50,432 nt of DNA from a virus. This document shows, in pieces, positions 38,951 to 44,656 of the stretch. Both the position numbers and the translations under genes were made by a program. Location: the IMG/VR virus record IMGVR_UViG_3300029258_003011. One strand, 5' to 3'. Each line of letters opens with the position of its first letter. The stretch's first letter is position 1. The notes beneath the pieces are model-generated. The model was not told the DNA's origin. It saw nothing but the letters and a program-made list of their open reading frames with translations, and searched no databases.

Positions 38951-40159
38951 TTATTCAATTACAGGATTATATTTTTGAATAATCTCAACGTCGATTGCTT
39001 CTTTTACTGCTTTATCCCATTCTTCTTTGAACTTAGCATCTTCGTTATAGAGATTTTCAGCATCCTTAGTTCTGAATTTTTTATCAGGATAAGATTTCAA
39101 ATAATTCCAAGCTCCTGATTGAAGTCTTTTATTCTTTACTAAGAAGTTATAGTTAGTTCTAAAATTATTGAATCCTGTAACAAAAGAACCAACTAGTTCT
39201 ATTTCAACATTTGGAGGAAATAACTTATTCTTTACTGTTCTAACTGAAGTCATTATTCCTTCAAATCCTATTTTTTCTGGATCCAATGCACCCTTTGCTT
39301 TCATTTCCAAAAGTGTAAAAGCATTAAATTTTAATACATTTCCTCCTGGCATTGATTTTCCAGTTGACATAAAACGAAGTTCTTTGGGTGGGGCAAATTG
39401 ACCAATATTTAATTGATCCCTTAGTTGGTTTACAGCAATCCATGCAATATTATGAGTTGCACATTTTGCCACATACTTCGGAACAAGAATAGAAAGAAGT
39501 CTTGCTTTATATCCAATTACAGAATTGATATCTTCTGCTTCTCTTTCTTTTAAAGATAGAGTATTTGCAATTGAATCCCATACTACTGCAGATGGTTGTG
39601 TCATCCCTTTTTCTGCTTTAAATACACACATAGTCTCTAAAAATTTAAAGACCTTTTCAACAGTAACATCTGTAATTGGTTTTATTTTTGGATTTCTCAC
39701 TCCAAGATTTGATAACCTAAGGGATGTTGTAGCTTCTTCGGAATCCAAAAATGCTGCTAACATTTGAGGATATTGTTTTTGACCAGCACCAATTGATTGC
39801 ATTGCTATCATTGATTTTCCGCTTCCTGGTTGTCCTACAATAATACTCAGACCACCAACTACAAATCCTCCGCCCATTATAGCATCGAGTAAATCAATAC
39901 CTGTTGATACTGTAAGCTTTTCTCCAATATCTTCTATAATGTCTGCTTTTTGGACAAGAAATTCTCCGAACTCTTTATAAAGAGCCATAGTTTCTTTGTC
40001 GACTCCGTCAGAATCTTCAACAACTAATGGTTTTTCTTCTGGAGTTAGACTTTCAATATCTTTTGTTGGTCCATCATTCAATTTAATGCTGTCCATTATT
40101 TCTTTAGCATCAGGCACTTCGGCGGTTTCCAACAATTCTTCTTTCTTCTCTTCGTTCAT
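38951..40159 (-). CDS. RecA/UvsX-family recombinase
   Basis: Walker A 'GQPGSGKS'. 'IAWIAVNQLRDQLNIGQFAPPKE...GGNVLKFNAFTLLEMK' parallels RecA '[35 protein letters not shown]'. 402 aa. Confidence 0.7.
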   Translation of the reverse strand: MNEEKKEELLETAEVPDAKEIMDSIKLNDGPTKDIESLTPEEKPLVVEDSDGVDKETMALYKEFGEFLVQKADIIEDIGEKLTVSTGIDLLDAIMGGGFVVGGLSIIVGQPGSGKSMIAMQSIGAGQKQYPQMLAAFLDSEEATTSLRLSNLGVRNPKIKPITDVTVEKVFKFLETMCVFKAEKGMTQPSAVVWDSIANTLSLKEREAEDINSVIGYKARLLSILVPKYVAKCATHNIAWIAVNQLRDQLNIGQFAPPKELRFMSTGKSMPGGNVLKFNAFTLLEMKAKGALDPEKIGFEGIMTSVRTVKNKLFPPNVEIELVGSFVTGFNNFRTNYNFLVKNKRLQSGAWNYLKSYPDKKFRTKDAENLYNEDAKFKEEWDKAVKEAIDVEIIQKYNPVIE

Positions 40160-40178: not shown

Positions 40179-40559
40179 TTAATGTTGCACTGATTCTTTT
40201 ATATCGTCGCTTTTCTTTTGAAACCCTTCTATCTTTTTCGCAAGATCTCTTACATTAATTATTCCTTCTATGCCGTCGTCTCCATCATCTTTCTCAAGTT
40301 TTCTTCTTATTTCAATCTCATCTTTAAGAGTCTTGCTTATTTCTTTTCTCATATCAAGAAGAGCTTTAAACAGTTCGGTAGTTGATTTAACTTTTTCTTC
40401 AAAAAATCTCATGTATCTTTTATCAAGATTTTCTGGGAACAACGAGTCGATTTTTACCTTGATTTTTTCAAGATCTTCAATCATTGATTTGATTGCTTTT
40501 CTGTGTTCGCTAAATTCATCAAGAAGATCTGAGACTATTTGTGCGTTTTCAAGATCCAT
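40179..40559 (-). CDS. Hypothetical coiled-coil protein
   Basis: 126 aa, E/K-rich. Confidence 0.4.
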   Translation of the reverse strand: MDLENAQIVSDLLDEFSEHRKAIKSMIEDLEKIKVKIDSLFPENLDKRYMRFFEEKVKSTTELFKALLDMRKEISKTLKDEIEIRRKLEKDDGDDGIEGIINVRDLAKKIEGFQKKSDDIKESVQH

Positions 40560-40564
40560 TTTAT

Positions 40565-40771
40565 TTATGTTCCTTCAGTAAGAACTTGCATCTTACCTGT
40601 TTTATCCAAAGGACTTCTTACATGACCTGTTTCATATACAGTAGTTCTGTCAGCAAATTCACAGGTAAACTTTCCGGGTCTTGATGTCATTGCGCCATGA
40701 CATGAATCATTTGGATTGAATTTACAATTTCTTGCATGAGGACATTGTTCATTTGTTTCTAAAATTAACAT
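40565..40771 (-). CDS. Hypothetical small Cys/His-containing protein
   Basis: 68 aa, 'CPHARNC...CHG...C' possible Zn-binding. Confidence 0.3.
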   Translation of the reverse strand: MLILETNEQCPHARNCKFNPNDSCHGAMTSRPGKFTCEFADRTTVYETGHVRSPLDKTGKMQVLTEGT

Positions 40772-41269
40772 TTATTTTATCTCCTCTCCTTCTGCATTAA
40801 AGAATTCAATTTTATCAAACACTTCGTTGAAAACCGTATCTACTAATAATGTTTCCAATTGTTCATGCATCCTATCTATAACATGTTCTGGAAACTTCCC
40901 TTTAGATGTTTCTCTTCTCCTTTTACATTCTTCAAGAGAAGTGGTCATGACCATAGCTCTGATGTTATATCCATATTCTTGAGCTATAGATGACCACATT
41001 TTTACTGTATTGATATTAGTATTTGTTTCATCAACGACAATGTTTAATCCTCGTATCATATGTGCTCTAACCATAGTTCTTGCTATAGCGCCTATATGAG
41101 GTTCAACAAGATGATTAAAATCTGATCCAAATGCCAATCGAATATCATCTCTGCTTATAATATGATACCCATAAACACCTTCATTAAAACCTTTGCCAAT
41201 AATATAATCATCGACAAATGTTGATTTACCGCTTCCTGGCAGACCTACCATTATTATGAGTTCGGTCAT
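40772..41269 (-). CDS. Polynucleotide 5'-kinase domain protein (T4 Pnk kinase-domain-like, no phosphatase domain)
   Basis: 'IIMVGLPGSGKSTFVDDYI' and 'ISRDDIRLAF' align with T4 Pnk 'ILTIGCPGSGKSTWAREFI' and 'INRDDYRQSI'. 'NIVVDETNTNINTVKMWSSIAQEYGYNIRAMVM' aligns with '[33 protein letters not shown]'. Confidence 0.7.
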   Translation of the reverse strand: MTELIIMVGLPGSGKSTFVDDYIIGKGFNEGVYGYHIISRDDIRLAFGSDFNHLVEPHIGAIARTMVRAHMIRGLNIVVDETNTNINTVKMWSSIAQEYGYNIRAMVMTTSLEECKRRRETSKGKFPEHVIDRMHEQLETLLVDTVFNEVFDKIEFFNAEGEEIK

Positions 41270-43002
41270 ATTTCACAGCTCCCCGATGCACATTGTACAT
41301 CTTCACTTGATAAAAAATTAGTTGTTTCGTTTTCTTTTAAATATTCCCTTACTTCTTCTTCTGTTGCTTGATTTAGAGGTTGCCCTTCTCTACAACCATC
41401 TCTATATACTGTAACTCCCTTTAGATCATAGATATATTCAAGCAAAAGTTTGCTCAAGTCATCTGTGGTAGACTCTCTTGGCATATTTATAGTTTTAGAT
41501 ACACTTCCATCAACATACTTTTGAACGGCACATTGAATTTCAAAGTGGTCTTTTGTTTGTAAATCAAAACTATCTACTAACCAATCAGGAACTTCATCTC
41601 CAGATCTCAAGCATTTTTCATATACAGGATGTACATACATTCGATCACTAACTCTATCTCTTCTCATATATGCTTTAGAGAATAATGGTTCAAGTCCACT
41701 GCAACAATCAGCAACCAAAGATATAGTTCCTGTGGGAGCAATTGCCATCAATGTAGTATTTCTAATTCCATGCCTCTTAATATCCATTCTTAAAGAAGCA
41801 GGAAGTTTTCTTATAAATGATGCCTTAGAATAAGGAATTGGATCGAATGCCGGGAATGCACCCTTTTCCATTGCTATTTCAATAGATGCTGAATATGCAA
41901 CATCTCTTATAAATCTCATTAACTTTTCAAGTTCTTGAACAGATTTTTCTGAACCATATCTGAGACCTTTGGCAAAGAAATAATCAGCAACACCAAGAAC
42001 TCCAATCCCTACTCTTCTTGATCTGTGAGCATTGATATCTATTTGCTTTATGCTATATTTATTAGACTCAATAATATTGTCCAAAAATCTAACTGCAAGT
42101 CTTACTGAGTTTTCTAGTTTTTTCCAGTTGGTATTAACACTTCCTGTGATAAAATTCGGTAGTACAAACGAACCGAGATTACAAACACCATACGGTTCAA
42201 GAGTTGTTTCTCCACAAGGATTTGTGCCAGTTACTGGAGCAAAGTAATATGAATTATTCTTTTGAAAGTTATTCCAATTCAATAATCCAGGTTCTGCATG
42301 GTTAATCATATTTTCAACAATTTTATCCCATATGATTCTTGCAGGAACTTTTCCACAACTCTTTTCTCTAAATTTGAATTCCCATTCGGAATCTCTTTCT
42401 ACTGCCATTAAAAAATCTTCATTTATAGCAACAGAAATATTAAAACATGATAACTTCCCATGGATAATTTTAGCATCAATAAAATCCATTATCTCTGGAT
42501 GGGATACTTCAACTGTTGCTATTGCTGCCGCCCTTCTTCCTCCCCCACTTTCAATAGTTCTTGCAGCACCATCAGTCGCTTCTATAAAACTTACCAGTCC
42601 GGAAGATTTTCCACCTTTTCCAAGGATGTCAGCATTCTTTGGTCGGAGTGGACTAAAGTTTACTCCAACTCCTCCGCCATCAGACCATAAAATTAAACTG
42701 TCCTTAATTAGTTGACCGATTTCTTCAATTGAATCTCCTACTGGTAAATGATAACAATTGAATAACGATCCTCTTGATTTTCCACTGTTTCTTAAAATTC
42801 TTCCACCAGGCATAAAATCTTGATTATAAATAAGCTCATGAAATGCATCTCTATATTTTGCCTGGTGTGTGGTTTCTGGCGATGAACCTGCAATTGCTGA
42901 TCTCAATGTACAGTCGTACCATCCTTCTTCAGGATGTAGAAAATATCTATCAGTTGCAATTTCTTCAGAGCTCTTTGATAACGCTTTCTTTTTGTTTGTC
43001 AT
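41266..43002 (-). CDS. Ribonucleotide reductase catalytic subunit (NxCxE active site; likely class II NrdJ-like, no nrdB nearby)
   Basis: Active-site 'TGTNPCGETTLEPYGVCNLGS' and C-terminal redox cysteines. 578 aa without an adjacent beta subunit gene. Confidence 0.8.
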   Translation of the reverse strand: MTNKKKALSKSSEEIATDRYFLHPEEGWYDCTLRSAIAGSSPETTHQAKYRDAFHELIYNQDFMPGGRILRNSGKSRGSLFNCYHLPVGDSIEEIGQLIKDSLILWSDGGGVGVNFSPLRPKNADILGKGGKSSGLVSFIEATDGAARTIESGGGRRAAAIATVEVSHPEIMDFIDAKIIHGKLSCFNISVAINEDFLMAVERDSEWEFKFREKSCGKVPARIIWDKIVENMINHAEPGLLNWNNFQKNNSYYFAPVTGTNPCGETTLEPYGVCNLGSFVLPNFITGSVNTNWKKLENSVRLAVRFLDNIIESNKYSIKQIDINAHRSRRVGIGVLGVADYFFAKGLRYGSEKSVQELEKLMRFIRDVAYSASIEIAMEKGAFPAFDPIPYSKASFIRKLPASLRMDIKRHGIRNTTLMAIAPTGTISLVADCCSGLEPLFSKAYMRRDRVSDRMYVHPVYEKCLRSGDEVPDWLVDSFDLQTKDHFEIQCAVQKYVDGSVSKTINMPRESTTDDLSKLLLEYIYDLKGVTVYRDGCREGQPLNQATEEEVREYLKENETTNFLSSEDVQCASGSCEI

Positions 43003-43031
43003 AACCTACCCTCCAAGATTCATAATTCAAT

Positions 43032-43439
43032 CTATTGCACTTTCCCTTTGAATAGAAAATATTCTGTGATCTTAGTGCCTTTCATTTTAGTCACTTTAGT
43101 GGATACAAAGTGATACAATCCTTTTATCTTTCTGCCGTTGAAACGTACCACCATATGTGCTGTTGAATATTTTTCAATGGTACATGCTCCATCGTCAAAT
43201 TTAACCAATTTTCCAGCACCATAACCTGTATTTATCACTCCTATAAATAATGCTTCCTCTTCTGAATGATCATGGGTTTTTACTGCCAGTACTTTTGGTC
43301 CTGCCTCAAGTGGTACTCCTTTACGAACTGCAAAGGAATCCCATATTTTACTATTTGGTTTTCTAAATCTTATATCTTGATGCTTCCCTGCTCTTTTAGC
43401 ATAATGGTCAACAACTATGAATTTTGATTTGCTTTGCAT
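43032..43439 (-). CDS. LigD-type 3'-phosphoesterase (PE) domain protein
   Basis: 'FIVVDHYAKRAGKHQDIRFRKP...WDSFAVRKGVP' and 'VLAVKTHDHSEE' / 'YGAGKLVKFDDG' match the LigD PE consensus (FVVQKHDATRLHYDFRLE...WAVPKGPS...VEDHPLEY...YGAGTV). Confidence 0.6.
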   Translation of the reverse strand: MQSKSKFIVVDHYAKRAGKHQDIRFRKPNSKIWDSFAVRKGVPLEAGPKVLAVKTHDHSEEEALFIGVINTGYGAGKLVKFDDGACTIEKYSTAHMVVRFNGRKIKGLYHFVSTKVTKMKGTKITEYFLFKGKVQ

Positions 43440-43920
43440 TTTGAAAATCCTCTAACGCCCATCGTGCCAAACAATAAGCGTCACATATATTATCATCGTC
43501 AAAGTCAAGATCCCATTTACATTTAGCAACTTTCATCATTAATTTTTTATCCGCAAAACCATCTGTTGTATGCCATTTTTTAAGTGCGGTGGGAGCTTTA
43601 ACTTCAAAAGGAACGTCGTTTTTGAACAAATGTGTCCTTAACATATATAACAACCCAACTCTTTCCCATAATGAAGTGCTTTTTGCCATATGAGATAAAT
43701 CTTCAATATACATTAAATCCATATTGAAAATATTAGCAATATACTTTGATTGGTCATAAATATCAAGAAGTCGTTGTTCAATATTTATATAACATTCTGC
43801 GTGAGTTGATAAAAGATTTTGTTCAACTATTTTACCAGTTTGATTTATTATTACTATTCCAAATCCTGTTAATGACGGATCCACCCCAACATAAAATCTC
43901 TCTTCTTCATAATCAAACAT
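43408..43920 (-). CDS. RuvC-like Holliday junction resolvase
   Basis: 'YVGVDPSLTGFGIVII' (RuvC motif I with catalytic Asp) and C-terminal 'DAYCLARWAL' (catalytic Asp motif). Confidence 0.7.
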   Translation of the reverse strand: MFDYEEERFYVGVDPSLTGFGIVIINQTGKIVEQNLLSTHAECYINIEQRLLDIYDQSKYIANIFNMDLMYIEDLSHMAKSTSLWERVGLLYMLRTHLFKNDVPFEVKAPTALKKWHTTDGFADKKLMMKVAKCKWDLDFDDDNICDAYCLARWALEDFQNAKQIKIHSC

Positions 43921-43936: not shown

Positions 43937-44656
43937 CTAACCGTGATCTATAATAATATTCGGATATGTTCCTTGTGTAAGTTTTTCTATTATTTCTCTC
44001 TTCTTCTCTTTTCCTTCTTCAAGAATTTCTGCACTGAGAGGAATTTCTCCAAATGGAGTTCTTAATGTCCCATCTCCATATTTCTTTCTTATTCTTCCTA
44101 GTACAATCATCATATCAGCGAGTGCCATTTCACAGAAAAATACTTGAAATTCATTTGGGATTCCTCTGAAATCCGGCGGTTGTTGTCTTTCATACTCAAC
44201 AGTACAACCTTGAACATCGGATGGAACTGGAGAGATTCTTACAATATTTGGATGTTTAAATTCAAAAGTTTGGTCAAATGATGAAAACATCATTTGGTCT
44301 GCTGCCATTGATTGAGCAAGTGCCCAGTTTTTTAACTCTCCATGTGACCAAACACCATAAGGTTGATGACCATGAAACATCCATTTAGAGTGATCAAAAT
44401 ATATTTCTACTACAGTAAGAATTTCTAAATTTTGAGGATCTTGGATATAATATTCATTTTGTCTTCCAGGAACCTTGTAAATAGAATTATTAAAATCCAA
44501 ATGAATCTTCTTTTTTTCAGGGATAAACTGAGAAAACTCACGAAGCGTAAAATCTTTAATATGCTCCATAATTTCAGTATCTTCCAATTCAAGTTGTTGA
44601 AATGGAAATCCTAAATGGCTCTTAACATATTTAAGAACTCTTGTGGCATTTAACAT
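43937..44656 (-). CDS. Hypothetical protein
   Basis: 239-aa ORF, no motif recognised. Confidence 0.4.
   Translation of the reverse strand: MLNATRVLKYVKSHLGFPFQQLELEDTEIMEHIKDFTLREFSQFIPEKKKIHLDFNNSIYKVPGRQNEYYIQDPQNLEILTVVEIYFDHSKWMFHGHQPYGVWSHGELKNWALAQSMAADQMMFSSFDQTFEFKHPNIVRISPVPSDVQGCTVEYERQQPPDFRGIPNEFQVFFCEMALADMMIVLGRIRKKYGDGTLRTPFGEIPLSAEILEEGKEKKREIIEKLTQGTYPNIIIDHG

Follow-up and report, generated by a model that had tools for sequence, protein, structure and literature searches.

A LigD-type phosphoesterase and a predicted Pnk-type kinase flank the ribonucleotide reductase gene in a jumbo-phage genome fragment

The RNR locus

The window analysed here, a 50,432-nucleotide stretch of viral DNA (IMG/VR record IMGVR_UViG_3300029258_003011), is a fragment of an uncultured jumbo phage and carries two small open reading frames (ORFs) on either side of a ribonucleotide reductase (RNR) gene. 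An earlier note on this DNA had read the ORF at 40772..41269 as a T4-Pnk-like 5′-kinase lacking the phosphatase domain and the ORF at 43032..43439 as a LigD-type 3′-phosphoesterase (PE), and had proposed that the two proteins split the functions of Pnk between them. Both ORFs were found at these coordinates, on the minus strand. The intervening gene (41266..43002, minus strand) was confirmed as an RNR and encodes a 578-aa protein of class II (adenosylcobalamin, NrdJ-type), with 343 bits against PF02867 and 487 bits against TIGR02504 (cut-off 400). The start of the PE gene overlaps the 3′ end of a RuvC-like gene by 32 nt, and the start of the kinase gene overlaps the RNR stop codon by 4 nt (ATGA). 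The same phage was present in four other assemblies, and megablast of the 38–46 kb region against GenBank phages gave no match.

The phosphoesterase ORF

The stand-alone 135-aa product of ORF 43032..43439 scored 53.8 bits against Pfam LigD_N (PF13298), above the gathering score of 31.1. Its best sequence matches in the PDB were the stand-alone archaeal PEs 3p43 and 3p4h (about 1e-12), followed by the Pseudomonas aeruginosa LigD PE 3n9b (2e-8). The AlphaFold2 model (predicted local distance difference test, pLDDT, 92) adopted the eight-stranded β-barrel of the PE fold, and its significant Foldseek matches in the PDB were all PE structures (3p43, 3p4h, 3n9b/3n9d, 5dmp and 2lj6; TM-score 0.68–0.91, root-mean-square deviation (rmsd) ~2 Å); the first match to anything else had an E value of 0.27. 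On sequence and modelled fold, the ORF encodes a LigD-PE-superfamily protein, in agreement with the earlier note.

Most of the known active site was recognizable. With P. aeruginosa residue numbers taken from the 3n9b alignment, H12, H20 and D22 of the window PE correspond to His42, His48 and Asp50 (putative Mn ligands), R24 and H58 to Arg52 and His84 (putative phosphate ligands), and K40 to Lys66; all are conserved. In the characterised enzyme His42, His48 and Asp50 bind Mn2+, and sulfate or phosphate is held by Arg52, His84 and Tyr88 (PMC8656161; PMC3300020). H12, H20, D22, R24 and H58 were invariant in a 42-sequence alignment of the phage family and in the solved PEs, and the HHDRH core was intact in 248 of 264 aligned PE sequences. 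The window PE is probably Mn2+-dependent, a metal dependence that we infer.

The kinase ORF

The 165-aa product of ORF 40772..41269 contained the motifs GLPGSGKST (residues 9–17), SRDDIR (39–44) and VVDETN (78–83) and matched Pfam AAA_33 (2.2e-19) and PHROG 505, ‘polynucleotide kinase’ (1e-22). Its top sequence matches in the PDB were the T4 Pnk kinase domain 1ly1 (2e-7) and Pnkp1 4xrp (3e-7), followed by PSTK, mammalian PNKP and Clostridium Pnkp, with no adenylate or thymidylate kinase at E ≤ 1. Alignment with T4 Pnk covered T4 residues 2 to ~155 at an identity of only ~25%, and because it ended there and tblastn with the T4 phosphatase domain found no match anywhere in the window, the protein was taken to be kinase-only, as the earlier note had described it. 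To the equivalog models TIGR04075 (bacterial Pnkp) and TIGR01663 (PNK-3′Pase) only the kinase module matched, scoring 39 bits against cut-offs of 750 and 503.

The P-loop (residues 9–16), D41, R44, D80, N83 and R118 were invariant in the alignment of the kinase family, with R118/R119 in the lid. D41 and R44 aligned with T4 Asp35 and Arg38 and were invariant across the family, T4 Pnk and Pnkp1. In T4 Pnk, Asp35 serves as the general base of the acceptor site, and Arg38 binds the 3′-phosphate of the acceptor nucleotide. In structural comparisons the AlphaFold2 model (pLDDT 83) resembled PSTK (TM-score 0.79), Clostridium thermocellum Pnkp (0.74–0.76) and T4 Pnk (0.71–0.72), with PNKP also close and an rmsd of ~3 Å, whereas UMP-CMP and adenylate kinases matched it less well (0.58–0.61, rmsd >5 Å). 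The ORF is thus a predicted Pnk-type 5′-OH kinase, closest to polynucleotide and tRNA kinases rather than to nucleoside monophosphate (NMP) kinases. An unrelated fold for the PE, or a generic adenylate or thymidylate kinase as the match of the kinase, had been named in the earlier note as outcomes that would contradict it; neither was found.

Distribution of the two genes

Close homologues of the PE numbered 113 (50–81% identity). All were stand-alone (102–237 aa) and all were metagenomic, some on contigs of up to 304 kb. Gene tables and tblastn established a common gene order in ~25 distinct PE-anchored loci, running from a clamp loader through FEN, a gp13-like gene, RuvC, PE, variable inserts, RNR, orf68, orf126, RecA and KH to a Cas4-like exonuclease. 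In the window this block, all on the minus strand, includes a FEN/5′-3′ exonuclease family protein (44671..45819; a weak match to Pfam 5_3_exonuc_N, and synteny), the gp13-like virion protein (43937..44656; PHROG 18911), the RuvC-like Holliday junction resolvase that is the conserved upstream neighbour of the PE (43408..43920; PHROG 159 at 3e-28, Pfam RuvC, and synteny) and, at its downstream end, a RecA/UvsX-like recombinase (38951..40159; PHROG 97 at 5e-43, Pfam RecA). Between RNR and RecA lie orf68 (40565..40771), a 68-aa Cys/His-rich protein that directly follows the kinase stop codon and occurs clade-wide with or without the kinase, and orf126 (40179..40559), a conserved 126-aa protein of no assigned function, recognized from the ORF list and by synteny. 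The Cys and His residues of orf68 are C10, H12, C16, C24, H25 and C37; the protein had no family match, and across the clade it stands between RNR, or the kinase, and RecA.

As a guard against ascertainment bias, 30 further loci were fetched independently of the PE through the neighbouring gp13-like gene. A PE homologue lay just downstream of gp13 in 28 of the 30, even where gp13 identity had fallen to 32–40%, and the kinase was found in none. In two PE-bearing loci, L019 and L168, the PE was kept with no RNR in the usual slot: in L168 it runs straight into orf126–RecA, and in L019 it is followed by a family B polymerase. The latter is part of a 1093-aa fusion of a uracil-DNA-glycosylase-superfamily domain with a family B DNA polymerase (L019 12704–15985), 2.3 kb downstream of the PE.

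Homologues of the kinase were scarce, with only 15 at E ≤ 1e-5. Within the clade it was placed in the window phage, in L009/L010, L048 and L049 (at least 72% PE identity; always directly after RNR) and in L056, where the order is RNR, a 74-aa ORF, kinase and orf68. Scans of IMG/VR with single kinase or RtcB sequences found almost nothing, and alignment-based scans were needed; for the kinase such a scan recovered 80 loci, none on a PE-bearing contig. These data establish securely that the PE is a clade-wide core gene and that the kinase is a lineage-specific insertion, a recent add-on.

LigD-type PEs are known as end healers of bacterial and archaeal nonhomologous end joining (NHEJ); here the fold belongs to the core gene set of a large uncultured jumbo-phage clade, whose contigs reach 312 kb. 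Tblastn with the window PE and the P. aeruginosa PE core against 50,697 GenBank phage records gave no match, PHROGs held no family for it, a literature search for PF13298 or LigD in phages returned nothing relevant, and LigD goes unmentioned in a survey of 224 jumbo-phage genomes (PMC7824862). The phage PE represents a new, virus-specific form of an enzyme kind already known.

Several members of the PE family carry additional sequence. About 44% have C-terminal tails, and in 17 of the 113 the C terminus is an acidic stretch capped by a conserved KKLPWS-like motif (P0007, P0009, P0016, P0038, P0075 and others) that recalls the acidic tail of single-stranded DNA-binding proteins with its hydrophobic-Pro-aromatic tip. 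This motif may serve in docking; the window PE lacks it. One homologue, P0332, is split by a LAGLIDADG intein.

Role of the phosphoesterase and the kinase

Our preferred explanation, held tentatively, is that the PE processes the 3′ ends of nucleic-acid strands within the replication and recombination block; it is preferred because all characterised PEs do so and the catalytic core is intact. The enzyme would act on the 3′ end of a strand, resecting a 3′-terminal ribonucleoside and/or removing a 3′-phosphate, and the resulting 3′-OH could be used by the phage polymerase, by recombination-dependent replication or by a ligase. A glutamate that occupies the place of an essential tyrosine throughout the family may take over the positioning or activation of the water nucleophile, or may shift the balance between diesterase and monoesterase steps. 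The PE belongs to a block for replication, recombination and deoxynucleoside triphosphate (dNTP) supply, FEN-gp13-RuvC-PE-RNR-orf68-orf126-RecA, into which a small sub-lineage has acquired the predicted Pnk-type 5′-OH kinase, placed directly behind RNR. In the kinase-bearing phages the two enzymes could yield 5′-P/3′-OH ends for the host LigA or for a phage ligase encoded elsewhere, but they are not an obligate pair and would not feed RtcB. The data show the family and fold identities, the conservation of residues, the core or accessory status of each gene and the gene contexts; the substrates, the metal dependence and the DNA-directed role are inferred. Should 3′-end processing hold, the PE would be a new viral 3′-end-processing enzyme of altered chemistry and a potential reagent for the removal of 3′-phosphates and 3′-ribonucleotides.

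Weighing against this explanation are the ties of both genes to RNR, the altered active site of the PE and the lack of the classical partners of end healing. The first begins with the position of the PE, which lies immediately next to RNR in 12 of the 29 distinct loci; the others have 0.5–3.4 kb inserted between the two, with rubrerythrin, DUF5661, HNH, Q_salvage or SET genes. In P0265 (713 aa) the PE is fused to a complete NrdJ RNR by a three-residue linker, at the junction ...YLFFKG-ASS-MSEK..., and the same junction, with the linker AER, recurs in P0260, whose PE domain is ~68% identical. The P0265 fusion lies in normal synteny as one uninterrupted ORF under the standard genetic code (L250 6001–8142). 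A gene-calling artefact was considered and rejected on the strength of the continuous ORF and of the diverged second sequence with the same junction. Where class III NrdG/NrdD replaces NrdJ in the slot, on a 312-kb contig (L027), the PE is still upstream. There, positions 9998–14087 hold a tandem pair of PE paralogues, followed in turn by DUF5661, a rubrerythrin/EncFtn-like gene, an activase resembling NrdG and the class III reductase NrdD.

The closest relatives of the kinase are found in similar company. In Desulfovibrio phage ProddE, a T7-like podovirus with the closest homologue from a cultured phage (38% identity), a MazG-like nucleoside triphosphate pyrophosphohydrolase gene lies upstream of the kinase and NrdD/NrdG downstream (L051, 19100–22514); the ProddE homologue is annotated ‘polynucleotide kinase’. 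In five IMG/VR loci (L059–L063, ~40% identity) the kinase always has NrdD nearby, with NrdG present at four of the loci and MazG at three, and a further homologue (L057, 41% identity) overlaps a dCMP deaminase gene. The nearest relatives thus adjoin NrdD/NrdG/MazG or dCMP deaminase, not RNA ligases: among 84 kinase-family loci no RNA ligase was near a homologue at least 36% identical to the window kinase, and the 29 with an Rnl-type RNA ligase within 5 kb were all ≤33% identical, as were the 16 with a T4-type HAD phosphatase nearby. Stand-alone AAA_33 proteins annotated as polynucleotide kinase therefore fall into at least two classes by gene context, the RNA-ligase-linked and the RNR-linked.

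Together with the altered active site and the missing partners described below, this RNR context fits a role in nucleotide metabolism at least as well as end healing. Instead of strand ends, the substrates of the PE and, where present, of the kinase might be breakdown products in the form of mono- or oligonucleotides, an alternative we consider unlikely, if the strongest of those weighed here. The kinase would phosphorylate the 5′-OH of 3′-NMPs or short 3′-phosphorylated oligonucleotides, the PE would strip the 3′-phosphate or 3′-terminal nucleosides, and the resulting 5′-nucleotides would pass to the adjacent RNR for the making of dNTPs. T4 Pnk accepts 3′-NMPs as minimal substrates. The frequent abutment of PE and RNR, the fusion verified at the DNA level, the persistence of the PE upstream of a class III enzyme, the recurrence between PE and RNR of rubrerythrin-like and DUF5661 genes, which also adjoin the PE or are fused to it, the overlap of the window kinase start with the RNR stop, and the reductase, MazG and deaminase neighbours of kinases lacking a nearby RNA ligase all speak for it. 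The PE-RNR fusion has been maintained, because the PE domain of P0260 has diverged while keeping the same junction with a different linker. If the coupling is real, a repair fold has been unexpectedly recruited into nucleotide metabolism.

Set against this, the characterised PEs all work on polynucleotide 3′ ends, with no mononucleotide activity documented (PMC3300020, PMC3082917). Phage synteny is largely inherited, and here the whole 15-kb block is conserved, not just PE and RNR; the interval between the two is an insertion hotspot that has taken up to 3.4 kb, and the PE persists in L019 and L168 with no adjacent RNR. Within the family the PE has been fused to whatever lies downstream, be it RNR, a rubrerythrin-like protein (P0257, P0261), DUF5661 (P0259) or an M48 peptidase (P0271), which suggests opportunistic read-through fusions, and the two assemblies with P0265 are identical across 11 kb and may stem from a single sample rather than being independent. 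Adjacency to RNR as an argument against a true Pnk was considered and rejected as decisive on comparison with T4, used as a control, where pseT itself stands in the string td-nrdA-nrdB-denA-rnlA-alc-pseT-cd. Adjacency to RNR or a deaminase alone therefore cannot reassign the kinase to nucleotide metabolism, and it is compatible with a true Pnk.

A more specific proposal is less probable still: that the PE is not a DNA-repair end healer but a dNTP-supply component physically coupled to RNR, its Tyr-to-Glu site stripping 3′-phosphates or 3′-nucleosides from RNA and DNA breakdown products whose 5′-OH the sub-lineage kinase would phosphorylate to give RNR substrates. It would assign a new biological role to both families, make the kinase-RNR-PE gene order functionally meaningful and provide a route that turns 3′-phosphorylated degradation products into substrates of RNR.

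Two side observations concern the same interval. Rubrerythrin-like genes and genes with a desulfoferrodoxin N-domain recur beside or fused to the PE (L005 9301–11806; L007 10573–10965; P0257, P0261), which suggests that oxidative stress or metals form a theme of the genes around PE and RNR in phages of anoxic origin. In L049 (8272–11686) a SET-domain gene lies between PE and RNR, and the RNR contains an intein (984 aa).

The second set of observations against 3′-end processing by the PE concerns its active site, where five of the six essential residues are kept and E62 occupies the position of the essential Tyr88. The alignment there is ungapped (H58-S-E-E-E62-A-L-F against H84-P-L-D-Y88-A-D-F) and anchored by H58, A63, F65 and G67. 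Residues linked to the monoesterase step are altered as well: Gln40 is replaced by V10 and Glu82 by H56, and the N-terminal Arg14/Asp15/Glu21 module is missing. A further change replaces Arg76 with V50. Mutation of Tyr88 is crippling, and this residue is the one most stringently required for removal of the 3′-phosphate (PMC8656161, PMC3082917). Its hydroxyl holds the water that is proposed to act as nucleophile when the monoester is cleaved, and Tyr-to-Ala mutants of PaePE, CkoPE and MbaPE retained 18–23% of phosphodiesterase activity and stalled at the 3′-phosphate product (PMC3082917).

The substitution is a property of the family. An exhaustive profile search yielded 5,121 PE clusters, of which 39 at E ≤ 1e-30 made up the phage-type family. 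Among the 150 best family members (at least 120 bits) the Tyr88 column held Glu in 126 and Asp in 13 (139/150), whereas matches below 90 bits had Tyr in 52 and Trp in 15; deep-branching members of the clade and other viral PEs have Trp or Tyr. The second PE paralogue of L027 has Ser at this position and lacks the GYGAG loop. That the phage PEs form a distinct variant in which Glu or Asp replaces the tyrosine, in a context other than NHEJ, is secure. All linkage to ligases has been lost from this family, which travels with RNR and is sometimes fused to it; outside it, PEs were found fused to ATP-dependent DNA ligase domains.

These changes raise the possibility, which we rate as improbable, that the classical activity has been changed or lost, leaving a pure 3′-phosphodiesterase (a ‘ribo-proofreader’ that resects ribonucleosides), an enzyme for phosphoesters other than nucleic acids, or a non-catalytic binding module attached to RNR and rubrerythrin genes. 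The family-wide loss of Tyr88, the behaviour of the three Tyr-to-Ala mutants, the altered Gln40, Glu82 and Arg76 equivalents and the variability of the Tyr88 position in other PEs would all fit, as would the score of 64.5 bits against NCBIfam LigD_PE_dom (TIGR02777), under the equivalog cut-off of 144. The five residues whose mutation kills both activities are invariant, however, which argues for retained catalysis, and the replacement is a conserved Glu/Asp rather than a random residue, which implies a selected catalytic role.

The third set concerns ligases. Pfam, PHROG or NCBIfam scans of the large ORFs, covering most of those with at least ~200 aa, revealed no ATP-dependent ligase in the window, in line with the earlier note, which had however overlooked RtcB, a GTP-dependent RNA ligase (2712..3842, minus strand; PHROG 1075 at 8e-99, PF01139 at 272 bits). 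Tblastn with T4 Rnl1, T4 DNA ligase and two actinophage RNA ligases found nothing in the window or in the clade loci, which total 1.2 Mb, and neither actinophage nor T4 phosphatase domains matched in the window. No ligase, Ku or NHEJ polymerase appeared within ±10 kb of the PE in the gene table of any relative, an interval searched in genomes of 200–300 kb. Because none was present in that interval, the classical partners of end healing are considered to be missing from the neighbourhood.

RtcB, the sole ligase in the window, is flanked by SbcD and a helicase and lies ~37 kb from the kinase. It joins 3′-P or 2′,3′>P to 5′-OH ends, whereas ATP-grasp ligases need 5′-P and 3′-OH (PMC7824862). Because these end chemistries are opposite, a kinase and a 3′-phosphatase would antagonise RtcB rather than feed it. 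An alignment-based scan found RtcB on none of ~32 clade contigs in IMG/VR, and on a related 307-kb contig (L249) it stands beside RNA polymerase (RNAP) genes. RtcB is another accessory gene, variable in position and unlinked to PE or kinase in relatives; as a partner ligase it was rejected for its end chemistry, its absence from the clade contigs and its place next to RNAP genes in the 307-kb contig.

The pairing proposed in the earlier note, worked out here as a dedicated split Pnk in which kinase and PE co-evolved to heal 5′-OH/3′-P (or 2′,3′>P) breaks, such as those of tRNAs cut by host anticodon nucleases, for sealing by an ATP-dependent ligase whose gene lies elsewhere, is the most doubtful explanation and finds no support in the comparative evidence. 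Both enzyme types are present and catalytically plausible, in five related phages they share one tight co-directional gene string around RNR, and jumbo phages commonly pair polynucleotide kinases with 3′-phosphoesterases of other folds (PMC7824862). Distant relatives of the kinase (~30% identity) are RNA-repair kinases of the classical type, with RNA ligase and tRNA genes as neighbours; in Streptomyces phages they lie next to an RNA ligase inside tRNA arrays. Against this, the PE occurred unaccompanied by the kinase in 28 of the 30 independently sampled loci and on contigs of 200–312 kb lacking a kinase of this lineage, and in none of the 84 kinase-family loci outside the kinase-bearing sub-clade was a PE (within 5 kb) or RtcB near the kinase. 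No tRNA genes were found in the window, no Rnl-type or DNA ligase was found there or in the ~1.2 Mb of clade loci, and both activities would block RtcB, the one RNA ligase that is there. The PE as the phosphatase half is the least secure part of the proposal, as the Tyr-to-Glu change hits exactly the 3′-phosphatase step.

Relation to known systems

The window PE is closest in form to the single-domain archaeal enzymes CkoPE (Candidatus Korarchaeum, 3P4H) and MbaPE (Methanosarcina barkeri, 3P43). It is of similar size (135 aa, compared with 117–151 aa), has the same β-barrel fold (TM-score 0.80–0.91, rmsd ~2 Å) and has like His-His-Asp metal and Arg/His phosphate sites. It differs in having Glu62 in place of their catalytic tyrosine (Cko Tyr55, Mba Tyr82), Val and His in place of the flanking Gln and Glu, two additional residues between the metal histidines and a conserved YxLFKGK extension at the C terminus, and in being viral and set in a replication/RNR block rather than an NHEJ context. 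With P. aeruginosa LigD PE (3N9B/2LJ6) it shares the fold and five of six essential residues. Unlike that protein, it is not fused to a ligase or polymerase, has no Ku or ligase nearby in ~30 loci, lacks the Arg14/Asp15/Glu21 module and has Glu for Tyr88 and Val for Arg76.

The kinase, like T4 PseT, has a P-loop, equivalents of Asp35/Arg38, Asp85 and the lid Arg, and a nucleotide-metabolism gene neighbourhood; unlike PseT, it has no HAD phosphatase domain and no adjacent Rnl1. Its module is of the same family as those of Clostridium thermocellum Pnkp (4GP6)/Hen1 and Capnocytophaga Pnkp1 (4XRP)-Rnl-Hen1, but the calcineurin-type or HAD phosphoesterase, ligase domain and Hen1 of such systems are all absent here. 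Jumbo-phage RNA-repair sets combine a polynucleotide kinase with a 2H, cRec or HAD phosphoesterase and an ATP-grasp RNA ligase, with RtcB as an alternative (PMC7824862). The window resembles them in holding kinase, 3′-phosphoesterase and RtcB in one genome fragment. It differs in that the LigD-PE fold is not listed in that survey, the distributions of kinase and PE do not coincide, and the searches found no ligase of the ATP-grasp type.

Other features of the window

The long ORFs of the window are all on the minus strand, and GC content is ~33%. PHROG and Pfam scans identified SbcD, RtcB, a helicase, topoisomerase II subunits, split multisubunit RNAP β-type subunits, baseplate proteins and, as members of the block described above, the clamp loader, the FEN-type nuclease, RuvC, the UvsX/RecA recombinase, the KH protein and the Cas4-like exonuclease. 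A scan for promoters and terminators returned fewer sites than were found in shuffled sequences; the phage encodes its own RNAP subunits.

An SPFH/MVP-like ORF of 849 aa (14304–16853, minus strand) combines Vault_3 repeat domains with a Major Vault Protein shoulder domain (72 bits). It had no PHROG match and sits in a GC-richer island (0.39–0.42 compared with ~0.33) at about 12–18 kb. At 9828–12354 (minus strand), a 437-aa HNH endonuclease (PHROG 1314) overlaps a 410-aa AAA_5-type ATPase (PHROG 1297); this HNH/AAA pair could be a McrBC-like or other conflict module.

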